From Mobula hypostoma (Eukaryota), in contig NC_086097.1 of NCBI RefSeq assembly GCF_963921235.1, forward strand, positions 10,912,001 to 10,976,000: a stretch of DNA of 64,000 nucleotides, in the 5' to 3' direction. The translations under genes were made by a program, and so were the position numbers. Under the pieces are notes generated by a model. It did not search any database. It worked only from the letters and a program-made list of their open reading frames with translations, and had not been told where the DNA came from. Position 1 is the stretch's first letter, and each line of letters starts with the position of its first letter. Below, one piece after another: positions 50,801 to 56,800 of the stretch.

Positions 50801-53800
50801 TGTCTATTGTAAACCAACGGACTCTCACAGCTACCTGCCACTTGTAAAAATGCTGTCCCCTTCTCTAAATTCCTCATTCTCTGTCACATCTGCTCTTAGG
50901 ATGAGACTTTTCATTATAGAATGAAGGAGATGTCCTCTTCTTCAAAGAAAGGAGCTTCCCTTCCTCCCCCATCAACCTTAACCTCAACTGCATCTCTTCT
51001 ATTTCACACACTTATGCTGTTACCCCATTCTCCCGCCATGCTACAGGGATAGGGTTCCTTTTGTCCTCACCTACCACCCCACCAACCTTCGCGTCTAGCA
51101 TATAATTCTCCGAGACTTCCTCCATCTCCAACTGGATCCCACCACCAAACATATCTTCCCCCCCCCCCCCGCTCCCAACTTTTTGCTTTCTGCAGGGATC
51201 ACTCCCTACGTGATTCCCTTGTCCCATTTGTCCCTCCCCACTGATCTCCCTCCTGGCACTTACCCTTGCAAGTGAAACAAGTGCTTTACCTGCCTCTACG
51301 CAACCTCCTTCACTACCATTCAGGGCCCCAAAGTCTCCTTCCAGGTGAGATAACACTTCACCTGTGAGTCTGTTGGGGTCATATACTGTTTTGGTGCTCC
51401 TGGTGTGGCCTGTTGTATATTGGTGAGACCCAATGTAGATTGGGAGATTGCTTCGCCGAACATCTGCGCTCCATCCACCAGAACAAACAGGATTTCCCAG
51501 TGCCCACCCATTTTAATTCCACTTCCTATTTCGATATGTCCGTCCATGCTCTCCTCCACTGTCGGGATAAGGCCACACTTAGGTTGGAGGAACAACACCT
51601 TGTATTCCGCTTGGGTAGCCTCCAACCTGATAGCATGAACATCGATTTCCCAAACTTCCAGCAACGCCTCCAACACCCCCTTCACCACTTTCCGTCCCTT
51701 TTCCCTCTCTCATATTAGCTCCTTGCTTGCCGATCGCCTCCCTCTGATGCTCCTCTTCCCCCCCCCCCCACTTCCCCACTTTTTCTTCCATGGCCTCTGT
51801 CTCTTTCACCAGTCAACTTCCCAGCTCTTCGCTTCATCCCTTCCCCTCCAAGTTTCACCTGTCACCTAGTGTTTCTGTCTCTGTCTGAATCTCCTCCCAC
51901 CTTTCAAACCTACTCAGTCTTTTTTTCTGTAGTCCTGTCGAAGGGTTTCGGCCTGAAAAACGTTGGCTGTACTTTTTTCCATAGATGCTGCCTAACTTGA
52001 TTTCCTCCAGCATTTTGTGTGTGTTGCTCCATTTATTCACTGCCCTCTAGCTTAAGAAATTCCTCCTCATCTCAGTTCTAAAAGGACGCTCCTCTATTCT
52101 GACGCTGTCCCCTCTAGTCCTAGACTCTCCCACCAAATCAGTTTCCTTGTGCTTCAGCCACCTGGCACTTTGCTGTTTTGAGCAATAGCGAACTGATCTT
52201 ACCATTGTTATGCGTGTTCAGTTGCTGTACATATGATCCCTTTGGCAGACTTGACTTCCCTGCCCCTGCTGACTTCTTGCAACACAGCTGGAGATTGGTT
52301 ATCAAGCTTCCAGGAGAGAAATCATTTGCTTTCCCTTCTGCTATTCAGTAACGTTTCAGCAATGATATTTTTGATCACAGGCCTACACTAGACAAATTTA
52401 GTAGCCAATAAATCTGCCAGCATGGTCAGCATCTGAACTACGATCAAACTCATCTCCCTGGAGCTGGAGCAACAGCACCAACTGAGTTTATCCTGAGTTT
52501 TATTGTTGCTCACTTTTGTTTAATTTTTTGCTGGAAAAGAAGGATACACATTGACATGGACTAGATTGGCCAAAGGGTTTGCTTCTGTGCTGTACTTTGC
52601 CATGACATGCAAATCAAAGATTTTGCAATACACTGAGCTAGCTGTTTTTTGCGCTCTTTAATTTGTATCTATTTCTAAGTTCAAAGTAAATTTCTTATTG
52701 TAATTTAGTTTTTTTTTATTACTATATATTGCAGTGTAGTACTGCCATAAAACAAATTGCATGACATAATGCTAGTGATGTTAAATCTGATTCTGATCCT
52801 CTCTTTAGGCACTTGGGTTCCTTTATGCATCTGGTGTCGGTGTCCATTCAAGTCAAGCTAAGGTATTTGTATATGTTTTTTAAAAAAAAATTAGGCTAAC
52901 TTGTCTTCCTGGTGAATGTGTTCATTTTTGAGAAGGGGATTGCTCCTAATTTTTGCCTTTTACATTTAAAGGCATTAGTGTTTTACACATTTGGAGCTCT
53001 TGGAGGAAACTTGTTGTCACACATGATTTTGGTAAGTAATCCTACATTGTAACAAAGCCTTACAAAGTTAACTATTTTTGGCTTGCTATCCAGTATAATT
53101 GAGTTAATGTGTGCAAAGGTCATTTTTAAAACCTGTAACCTTTAGGTTAGTAGCATAATTGCCTGAAGTTAAATTGCTCTCTATGGATGTTATTTTGCAG
53201 CAAGTTTTGAATATTTAGTTGATGGAAATATAACACATTTCTTAATCGTTCAGGGCTATAGATATTGGGCTGGCATTGGAGTCCCTCAGAGCTGTGAATC
53301 TGCTTTAACTCATTACAAGCTCGTGGCAAATTATGGTAAGCAATCAAATTGGCCTCAAATACTGCGTTGTTATGTACCCCTAGGATTCATATTTTCTGTG
53401 GACTGTCACTTTAAAATGTCGGGAGAACGAGACTGACTTCTCACAGCATTCGCCTTTTGGATTAAAAATATCTCTTATTAATTAACCTGAGCATTGAACT
53501 GAACTATCTTACATTCCATCGTAAGACTGTATCCCTTACCACCTAAGCTTGAAGAGGTTTAGGTTTATATTTCCACACCTATATATGTACAAATAATCTC
53601 TGCTAACCTACTTGATCTATCTGGTTTTATGTTACTTTATTATGTAGTCACTAATAAAATTAGAGAACTGCAAAACCAGACTCCAGGTGTGTTCCATTTC
53701 TGCTGGTTCTTTAAACCCGTTATGGGTTACGTAACAAAATTGGAGGCACCGCTGGGATTCGAACCCAGGATCTCCTGTTTACCAGCTGTTTTTTTTTAAA

Positions 53801-56800
53801 CCCGTCCCAGGTCCCTAACAATATTGGGGCCTGCGTCTGAAAATATGAACCCTGGGGGTACATAACAGCGTGTACTTTTAGAAATATTGCATGTTCTTCC
53901 TATATTCAACTAACAATGTAGGATTAGTGGGACATAAAAAAAAAAACAGAATGACTCTTTAAAGATTTTAAGGGAATAGATTAGAATCCTATCATTAGCT
54001 TGCGAGTCTAGATTAATGGAAAATGTATCTGGAGAAAATGCTCTCCATCCAAAAGATGGTAAAGATGTCAATGTAACAATTCAGTAAGTAATGCTACAGT
54101 GGTGCTAGAAAGTTTATAAACCTTGTAAAATTTTCTTTTTCTGCATAAATATGACCTAAAATATGATCAGATCTTCATGTAAACCCCAAAACTAGATAGA
54201 GAACCCACTTAAACAACACAAAAAGCATTATACTTTTATTTATTGAGAAAACTGATCCAATATTACATGTATTTGTTGGAAAATGTGAACCTTACCTTTC
54301 AGTAACTGGTGTGACCCCCTTGTAGGGTAATAACTTCAACCCTGGGATGTTGGTAGGCTTTCTTGCATGAACTGCTTGCTTCAGGTCCTTCCACAACATC
54401 TCTATAGGCTTAAGTTCGGGGACTTTGACTTGGCCATTCCAAAACACAGATTTTCTTTTGAACTATTCTGTTGATGATTTATTCTTGTCTTTCAGATTAG
54501 TCTTGTTGCATTATCCATTAAGCTTCTATTAAGCTTCAGGTGATGGACTGCTACCCTGATATTCTCCTGTAAAATGTCATGATACAATTTTGAATCCATT
54601 GTTCCCTCAACTATTGCAAACTGTCCAGGCCCTGAAGTAGGAAAACAGCCCCCAACCATGATGCTCCTGCCACCATGCTTTACAGCTGGGGTGAGGTTTT
54701 GGTGTTGGTGTGCACTGCCCTTTCCCTCCAAACATGGCGATGTGCTTTCCTACCAAGAAGTTTAACTTTAGTCTTATCTGTGCACAGAACATTGTAGAAC
54801 ATCCAGGTAGTCTTTTGCAAACTTGAGACGGGCAGCAATTTTTTTTGTAGAGCAGTGGTTTCCTGTGGTGTCCTTCCATGAACACCTTTCTTGTTCGGTA
54901 TTTTCTTTAGAGTGGCACTAACAGAGACTTTAGCAAATTCTAGAAATTTGTGCAGGTCTTTTAATGTTACCCTTGGGTTTTTCCACCCCCTTCAGCATTG
55001 CATGTTATGCAGTTGGTGTGATATTTGTAGGATGTCCACTCCTAGGGAGTGTAGCAACAATACTGACAATTTCTCTCTGTGGACTGATGAACACTTGGCT
55101 TTAGAAATGCTTTTGTAGCCTTTTCCAGCTTCATGCATCTCTACAATTCTTCTTGGGTGCTCTGAAAGTTGTTTTGATCGAGGCATGGTGCTCATAAGTA
55201 GATCTTTCTTGAGAGGAGCAGGCTCTGTCAGTAACCTGACTTTGTGTGCCTTATTTTAAAATCAGGCAGGGCAGCTATATAACCCTCACCTCCAATCTCA
55301 TCTCATTGATTGGAACACCTGACTGTAAATAGCTTTTGTAGAAGGCATTATCCCAGAGGTTCACATACTTTTTCCAACAAATACATGTAATATTGGATCG
55401 TTTTTCTTAATTAAAAAATGGACAAGTATAATTTTTTTTGTATTATTTCTTTGGCTCTCTTTATCTAGTTTTAGGACTTGCAAGAAGATCTGATCACATG
55501 TTAGGTCATTTATGCAGGAATATAAAATTCTACAAAGTTCACAAACTTTCTAGCACCAATGTAATCAGTCCTTTCAGACTTCGCTAACCATAAGCATAGA
55601 AGGATGTAGAGCAAAGATGCATAGACTGGAGTTCCATCACATTATCAGTCATGATCTAAGTGGCAAAACTGGGCTTTTTTGTCCTAGTTCTTCAGGTGTT
55701 CTATTTTTTTTTCAATTCTGTTTTTTAATGCCCATCATAATGTGCCATGTAGGCAATCATTGTCTATCCATGACCATGATTGTTCTTGGCAACTTTTTCT
55801 ATAGAAGTGGTTTACTGTTGCCTTCTGGGCAGTGTCTTTACAAGATGGGTAACCCCAGCCATCATCAATACTCCTCTCAGTGTCAGTCTGGCATCAGTGG
55901 TCGCTTAACCAGGACTTGTGATATGTACCAGCGGCTTGTACAGCAATCTACCACCTGATCCCATGGTTTTGCATGACCCTGATTTGGTGGAGTGGGTGGT
56001 GCTTAGCAGGTGCTTCAAGGATGAGCCACGGGCTTGTGGAAGGAAGGAGCACCTTGTTCCTCCTTTGGTAGAGACATATCACCTGTCACCTAATGCTAAG
56101 TCAGTTAAATTTTAATCGGATTTTGTTGCTAGCTAATCTATTAAATCAGTGACTTGCTATCTGCTGAGGAGAATTTTGGCCACAAGCCGAGTATTTTAAC
56201 AAAATTGAATTGAATAATCTTTATTGTCATTATACATGGGTACAATGAAACTCTGTTTGGCTTCCTCTCAGGCAATTAAATAAAGCGGTAGATAAAAACA
56301 AGACAGTAATAGAAAAACGGTATTAAATAGATAAGTAGCAGAAAATAAGTTGCAGCAGCACCAGAATATCACAGTAATGCCCAAAGTGCCGTTAGTGCAA
56401 GTATTTGAGTCCCTGTGTGTGTGGATGTGTGTGCTCACAGTTTCAGTCATTGTTCTGTGGGAGTGGTGTGATGGAGGCCACAGCTCTGGGATAGAAGCTG
56501 TTCCTCAGTCTATTTGTTCTGGCTTTTAGTGTCCTGAACTTTTTTCTGGAGGGCAGCGGGTCAAACAGGGAGTGGCCGGGGTGTGTGGTGTCTCTGGTTA
56601 TGCTGATTGCTTTCCTCCTGAGTCTGCTGGAATAGATGGTGTCCAGTCCTGGGAGCTCCACCCTGACAATTTGCTGGGCCGCCCTCACCACGCGATGCAG
56701 GTCTTGTCGCTCAGCAGCTGTGCAGCTGGCAGACCATACTGTGGCGTTGTCGGTCAGGATGGTTTCAATTGTGCTTCTGTAGAAGTTAAGCAACAGCTTT

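Follow-up and report, generated by a model that had tools for sequence, protein, structure and literature searches.

How does an insertion of only 500 bp come to have inverted ends like those of a DNA transposon, the end of a long terminal repeat (LTR) twice over, and tracts complementary to transfer RNA? The question is raised by an element at positions 53368–53867 of a 64,000-nucleotide stretch of the Mobula hypostoma genome (contig NC_086097.1, positions 10,912,001 to 10,976,000, forward strand), the whole of which is called the window below. The element is probably a dead-end product of reverse transcription of a Gmr1-like Ty3/Gypsy retrotransposon, placed in the genome in one insertion by the integrase of its family and altered by two separate accidents. 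The first, which gave a cassette containing half of a tRNA-Thr, would be older and inherited, and the second, which gave the inverted right end, would be specific to this copy. The order and enzymology of every step are what we infer; the direct observations are the anatomy of the element, its family, the tRNA identity with its CCA and inosine signatures, the recurrence of both features and the single-copy junctions.

Anatomy of the insertion and its parent family

The insert starts with TG and ends with CA. Its terminal arms, 29 nt long and inverted, are identical at 27 of 29 positions (binomial chance 3e-14), and GCGT stands on either flank (53364–53367 and 53868–53871) as the target-site duplication, the chance of a 4-mer match being 0.0044. 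An earlier note, made from the letters alone, had described these ends, arms and flanks, an AATAAA near 53653, an LTR end at 53736, and two units each consisting of an LTR end, a 4-nt spacer and a tract beginning with TGG, the repeated end reaching 53820. All of these are present, the AATAAA lying at 53653–53658 on the forward strand in the 3' part of the LTR.

Several parts have a different identity from that proposed. The first 369 bp, thought to be a complete LTR, are an LTR of about 1.3 kb with an internal deletion of ~945 bp. The 5' end of U3 (the unique 3' region; LTR nt 1–72, at 53368–53439, forward strand, its nt 1–29 being the left arm) matches a 1,319-bp family LTR at 94% and is joined, with 3-nt microhomology, to nt ~1016–1319 of that LTR (53437–53736, forward strand, 87%). 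These ~300 nt comprise the remainder of U3, the repeat region R and the unique 5' region U5. A forward-strand spacer of 4 nt (53737–53740), recognized from the sequence and from family junctions as a family feature, separates the LTR end from the first tract (53741–53785, reverse strand). This tract copies the mature 3' half of tRNA-Thr(AGT), from CCA to about position 32, as judged against the genomic genes L042, L048 and L055–L059 (L numbers denote genomic loci), and constitutes an extra primer-binding site (PBS). There follow, on the forward strand, a second, variant U5 end of 35 nt (53786–53820), equal to that in other family copies, a second 4-nt spacer read from the sequence (53821–53824), and the first 15 nt of a degenerate PBS of tRNA-Pro type (53825–53839), assigned from family junctions and from tRNA genes having a matching 3' end and Pro anticodon loops. 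The supposed capture of two tRNA halves thus holds for the first tract, whereas the second is the beginning of the ordinary Pro PBS. The right arm (53839–53867, reverse strand) is the reverse complement of LTR nt 1–29, rather than of the LTR end, and hence a second U3-type integrase end. It overlaps the Pro tract by 1 nt, and the join adjoins an 8-nt block in which PBS and U3 are complementary.

There is no open reading frame of at least 120 aa inside the element, and no tRNA gene was found in the window by ARAGORN. The Rfam tRNA match at the Thr tract scores 19.4 bits, below the gathering threshold, as expected for half a tRNA; all Rfam matches at the element are sub-threshold. The fold of U3 nt 1–48 is not unusual (z -0.64).

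A search for the LTR across the 3.48-Gb genome gave 2,208 candidates. Among the 40 scored, none beyond the window itself matched the full unit, and most spanned unit nt 67–369. Family LTRs are 1,035–1,627 bp long (21 other loci with both ends located), and of 17 presumed solo LTRs six are flanked by exact 4-bp duplications and two, judged by eye, by exact 5-bp ones. The window copy having no open reading frame, gag and pol domains were scored on sister copies. One of these (L069) encodes Integrase_H2C2 (integrase zinc finger), RVT_1 and RT_RNaseH in that order, and an integrase placed before the reverse transcriptase (RT) is a hallmark of Gmr1. The nearest solved relatives of the family RT are Ty3 RT (E 2e-32), and the window element matches the LTR of a gag-bearing sister copy at 87–94%. 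SCAN matches came from three copies, in three of the four gag-region frames scanned (E 4e-5 to 0.003), all below the Pfam cut-off; a link of SCAN to Gmr1-like elements is drawn in the pertinent part of PMC4592553. By these sequence comparisons the window element is derived from a Gmr1-like Gypsy family.

Two further observations concern the family at large. At L076 (nt 1463–1800) a family LTR and its Pro site, exact over 26 nt, are joined directly to an apparent pol end and polypurine tract (PPT), which looks like a deletion product the size of a terminal-repeat retrotransposon in miniature (TRIM). The LTR pairs within the single insertions L062/63, L066 and L067 differ by indels, and at least one indel of the L067 pair is also present in another copy; such sharing suggests transfers between molecules.

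The tRNA-Thr cassette and the Pro primer site

Genomic tRNA-Thr(AGT) genes match the first tract only beyond its TGG, showing that the CCA tail was copied. The base opposite wobble position 34 is C in all ten element tracts and T in all seven genes; inosine at position 34 is read as G during copying. On these signatures the tract is the antisense 3' half of a mature tRNA-Thr(AGT), with its CCA and with inosine-34 read as G. It weighs against this that U5 could be the source of the C opposite position 34 in two copies, L032 and L033. The tRNA match runs past that C in L035, L040 and L050, the last of which belongs to another LTR family and lacks the U5 repeat.

The antisense tRNA-Thr past the anticodon and the family U5 have CTTTAACC in common. 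This homology would allow a read-through product of tRNA-Thr to pair ~30 nt within U5, which duplicates the LTR end. The first accident would accordingly begin with tRNA-Thr, instead of tRNA-Pro, priming on the long, degenerate PBS of the family. Plus-strand synthesis would then read through 1-methyladenosine at position 58 (m1A58) and continue beyond the anticodon, and the over-long strong-stop DNA, instead of annealing at the PBS, would pair with CTTTAACC in U5, ~30 nt upstream. The product would be an LTR followed by the Thr half, a second U5 end and the old Pro PBS. Such a cassette would keep replicating and be shuffled among subfamilies, and loss of the Pro site from some cassette copies would complete a switch of primer. 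Ty3 is described in the relevant part of PMC5371799 as accumulating dead-end strong-stop DNA and not inheriting tRNA sequence. By analogy, DNA of this kind would supply the substrates here, and non-inheritance would explain why the PBS is degenerate. A weak point of this scheme is that the tRNA copy could end anywhere from position 35 to ~17, a stretch over which U5 and the tRNA are too alike to tell. A stop at N2,N2-dimethylguanosine 26 (m2,2G26) was considered for L035 and L040 and dropped, U5 resembling the tRNA over the same stretch.

The Thr unit follows the LTR end at nine of 40 scored places (74 candidates). Five of the nine are direct two-LTR copies (L062/63, L064, L065, L066, L069) and three have inverted ends (window, L061, L067); for L068 there is no second LTR within the stretch retrieved. 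The variant second U5 end is kept in six of the nine cassette copies, L032, L033, L035, L036 and L040 included. In L034, L037 and L038 a common deletion has removed the variant end and the Pro site, so that Thr is the only PBS left. L044, L054 and L060 have the variant end as their sole LTR end, with the Pro site alone, the state to be expected if recombination had removed the cassette. Monophyly of the cassette copies was rejected both on R-U5 (9 versus 11 rows, approximately unbiased test, p-AU 5e-51; L039 and L051 excluded) and on leader/gag (7 versus 9 rows, p-AU 1e-4; built without the window, L035, L045, L076, L039 and L047). Two sites are diagnostic of a second Thr isodecoder; L035 agrees with it at both, L034 at one, and in L036 and L038 deletions have left the sites unreadable. 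These matches point to repeated Thr priming. We infer that the cassette had one old origin, followed by repeated Thr priming and shuffling by recombination, while repeated origins of the cassette are possible. The trees, it must be counted on the other side, rest on ~200–230 columns, and L034 and L038 form long branches.

The repeated LTR ends had also been read as spacers accumulating, that is, as a system like an array of clustered regularly interspaced short palindromic repeats (CRISPR) that gathers tRNA-derived spacers. A repeat-spacer-repeat layout does exist, and copies of tRNA-Thr, tRNA-Asp and a Leu/Thr chimera stand after LTR ends. However, there is never more than one extra unit and it is always Thr; neither the cassette search nor a general tandem pattern, both using exact patterns of low sensitivity, found a copy with more, and the cassette is at home in ordinary two-LTR copies. 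The general pattern, strict enough to miss known sister copies, occurred at four places against two for a reversed control, and of the four only the one in the window has this structure. In just one family junction does the opening tRNA end belong to neither the Pro nor the Thr type. A spacer-gathering system is thus scarcely credible. The pattern of the variant U5 end had no matches in metagenome contigs.

The second tract of the window is the start of the usual family PBS, a degenerate tRNA-Pro complement of 24–25 nt that reaches to the tRNA T-loop. Of 183 LTR-PBS junctions found, 100 were examined, and two Thr, two chance-like and one sister-family rows were dropped. By hand count, the base opposite A58 in the remaining 95 is A in 75, T (the true complement) in 15, G in four and C in one, so that 80 of 95 carry a non-complementary base. 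This is the pattern expected from misreading of m1A58. The tally counts copies, not events, since copies share ancestry, and its domination by one allele (75 of 95), which may be inherited from one event, tells against such a reading. Together with a tRNA-Asp copy at L049, the A58 mismatches indicate that read-through into the primer tRNA is common in the family. Cyclisation of the RNA does not suffice to account for the A opposite position 58, because that base also occurs in L044, L047, L052 and L060, whose U3 start lacks the matching motif.

At L049 (nt 1438–1611), ~100 nt of the family LTR end are followed by a near-whole antisense tRNA-Asp(GTC) (35 bits) and then by unrelated DNA. On the minus strand of L050, around nt 1500, a Leu-type acceptor part is joined to the remainder of a tRNA-Thr at the shared T-arm; beyond this chimera lie a short palindrome and what appears by eye to be inverted RNase H coding DNA. 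A sister family with ~2,600 junctions has a single degenerate Pro site in five of five copies read. The commonest PBS forms (L070–L074 among them) already depart from tRNA-Pro within their opening 18 nt, and none of the 16 matches obtained looks like a gene for the variant. The variant U5 end (53786–53820; L044, L054, L060) contains a 9-nt stretch identical to the sense tRNA-Pro variable loop and T-stem, which may be chance or a relic. L077, L078 and L081 are tRNA-Pro genes whose anticodons, judged from the sequence, are TGG and AGG; they contain introns of ~16–17 nt, and ARAGORN in the mode used labels them Gln or Leu. At L075, L079 and L080 the ends of other repeats are followed by antisense tRNA-Pro to about position 38, and the copy at L079 lies between inverted repeats of ~20 nt.

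The inverted U3 end

Four LTR-PBS loci out of 24 (window, L045, L061, L067) are closed by an inverted U3 start. The 24 loci are the window and 23 others chosen by likeness to its PBS region, viewed over ~1.5 kb downstream; one represents another family. The inverted arms are 29 nt long in the window and ~135–140, 460 and 987 nt in the other three. The flanks are GCGT/GCGT, ACTT/ACTT, GGCAC/GGCAC and CCAG/CCAT (three exact, one matching at three of four positions), and the breakpoints all differ. Among the candidates scored (18 of 18 for the window, and 40 of 100, 40 of 70 and 40 of 223 for the others), no inverted junction is spanned by any locus but its own. The insert had been proposed to have integrated as one piece by means of a Gypsy-type integrase, and the recurrence of inverted-end insertions with differing duplications upholds this. 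A genome-wide check of copies gives a divided answer: the architecture recurs with new target-site duplications, while the 500-bp unit itself is single-copy.

A mobile non-autonomous element with terminal inverted repeats (TIRs) was the other proposal. It could be moved by integrase or re-copied in the manner of a copy-back defective genome, in which case the element RNA would end in antisense U3, primable by plus-strand DNA of a helper. Proper TG..CA ends, the target duplication and four examples of the architecture speak for it. Against this, the junctions are all single-copy among the candidates scored, their breakpoints all differ and there is no sign of excision, which makes mobility very unlikely.

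The inverted end is tentatively ascribed to a template switch by RT. At the Pro PBS, a short U3 plus-strand DNA would have become attached to sense sequence, with the consequence that both DNA ends would be U3 ends usable by integrase. Most likely, the nascent plus strand primed at the PPT would itself have primed on the sense template in place of the tRNA, its nt 18–25 being able to pair with the 3' portion of the PBS. Several results detract from this. Junction homology is 7 nt in L061, 1 nt in the window and 0 in L045 and L067, and the short or absent microhomology of the last three is as readily explained by end joining as by an RT jump. The arms are 88–94% alike, close to direct LTR pairs (90–97.5%), and shared polymorphisms fail to separate origins from one molecule and from two. 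No inverted end was seen within 600 nt at 12 further PBS loci, and no empty site was seen; of the words sampled from 52900–54300, fractions of 0.73 and 0.47 recur in two other organisms, a measure uninformative on whether the site is filled or empty.

Retroviral integrases perform two-donor integration in vitro. It is a possible, if more doubtful, explanation that the U3 ends of two cDNA molecules were integrated in concert and that host end joining fused the dangling molecules. The low junction homologies agree with this, as does an 11-nt deletion in the right arm of L067, absent from its own left LTR and present in L014, which implies that the two arms came from different templates. Yet direct LTR pairs are equally unlike, so that different templates are usual in the family, and the window join falls exactly at the 8-nt PBS/U3 complementary block. 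We give the template switch a small lead over integration from two molecules and end joining, and the data do not separate them.

An origin after insertion, either by inversion of the 3' LTR through the 13-nt terminal repeats of the LTR or by two opposite insertions, in both cases followed by deletion, is unlikely. In its favour, the U3 of all four inverted cases is of the type whose start mirrors the U5 end (four of nine, versus none of 11 others; Fisher p 0.026, post hoc), and the left LTR of the window has also lost a large internal segment. An insertion with inverted ends has no way of collapsing to a solo LTR, and such insertions would hence be enriched among survivors. The matching flanks of all four, however, exclude two separate insertions, and an LTR inverted in place was found at none of five PPT-LTR junctions, a small sample. 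The four inverted products compare with ~2,200 LTR candidates; because inverted ends cannot be reduced to solo LTRs, their share among non-solo copies overstates the rate at which they form.

The insertion lies in an intron of a SEL1L gene, on the same strand and 32 nt past the splice donor of the preceding exon (53254..53335, forward strand; a 27-aa match to SEL1L, E 3e-21). An upstream SEL1L exon lies at 52972–53031 (E 2e-5). The poly(A) signal of the element stands 317 nt past the donor and might give rise to truncated transcripts. At 44649–45695 and 54364–55378 lie diverged Tc1/Sleeping Beauty-like copies that are 77% alike and face in opposite directions.

Comparison with known systems

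Neither read-through of the primer tRNA nor aberrant strand transfer is new in kind. In the titles and abstracts of the open literature neither a heritable tandem PBS with primer-switch intermediates nor natural U3-U3 insertions of Gypsy elements were found; an earlier description of either is possible. How LTR elements change their primer tRNA is stated to be unknown in the relevant passage of PMC10886601, and the path from LTR retrotransposon to DNA transposon is called unclear in that of PMC2836005. Here, primer-switch intermediates coexist in one genome, stamped with the CCA tail and inosine-34 of a mature tRNA. Beside them are four natural insertions with inverted LTR ends inside one target duplication, a shape put forward only as a hypothesis in the sections of PMC2836005 concerned. 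Both questions, primer change and the path from LTR to TIR, thus become countable in one genome, although a route from either accident to a new mobile element would be hypothetical.

That both accidents are routine in the family and have a wider evolutionary reach is a speculation that we consider improbable. If it were true, tRNA read-through with rescue in U5 would be a general way of switching primers, from Pro only through Thr plus Pro to Thr only, and U3-U3 insertions would be a one-step source of TIR elements. With integrase before RT in the Gmr1-like pol, a longer U3-U3 product would hold integrase without RT, which is the layout of Ginger1. This genome may then contain elements of that layout, some of which may have transposed anew.

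With Gmr1-like Ty3/Gypsy elements the family shares integrase before RT, the LTR-PBS-PPT layout, 4–5-bp duplications and, if the sub-threshold matches are genuine, a SCAN-like gag. The window copy differs from them in having no coding sequence, PPT or 3' LTR, and in its tandem PBS and inverted U3 end. The over-extended strong-stop DNA of HIV-1, Ty1 and Ty3, in which RT copies the primer tRNA past m1A58, is the nearest parallel to the Thr tract in the portion of PMC8599865 devoted to it. There, HIV-1 products that extend further than position 54 are called a dead end unable to integrate, whereas here the product would have been rescued through U5 homology and become a heritable second PBS.

The TIRs of Ginger1 transposons have been proposed to stem from two oppositely oriented LTRs (PMC2836005, in its discussion of their origin). 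The window element shares with them TGTNR at both ends, a short duplication and Gypsy-type integrase chemistry; the TGTNR termini are common to Gypsy and so not diagnostic of Ginger1. Going by the same source, Ginger1 TIRs measure 40–270 bp, against arms of 29 nt in the window and ~135–140, 460 and 987 nt in its sisters, and the Ginger1 target is CCGG or CCGT/ACGG, against GCGT, ACTT, GGCAC and CCAG/CCAT. Unlike Ginger1, the window element has no transposase and is a single-copy insertion, and its inverted-end sisters extend no further than the leader or the early part of gag. The published scheme invokes neighbouring insertions, whereas here the inverted ends entered in one event. Pieces of tRNA in Ginger1 TIRs, considered as an additional link, are not borne out by the main text of PMC2836005, which contains no mention of tRNA, Gmr1, PBS or primer. 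The kinship with Ginger transposons suggested in the earlier note thus comes down to shape, three of the four Ginger1 features tested having failed.

TIRs and a target duplication, as in miniature inverted-repeat transposable elements (MITEs), are present, but multiple copies of the same structure were not found among the part of the candidates that was scored. An array of at least three units with varied spacers was likewise not found with the exact, low-sensitivity patterns used. TRIMs, including Helenus, resemble the window element in being short, non-coding and Gypsy-dependent and in having tRNA-derived sequence and, in animals, a 4-bp duplication, as far as the description in PMC10886601 extends. 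Helenus, in that description, has two direct LTRs, a PPT and a tRNA-like sequence inside the LTR. The window element has one LTR, no PPT and an inverted right end, and its tRNA copy is an antisense 3' half situated outside the LTR. It is a derivative of a Gmr1-like family rather than a Ginger1 element, a MITE, a TRIM or a spacer array.

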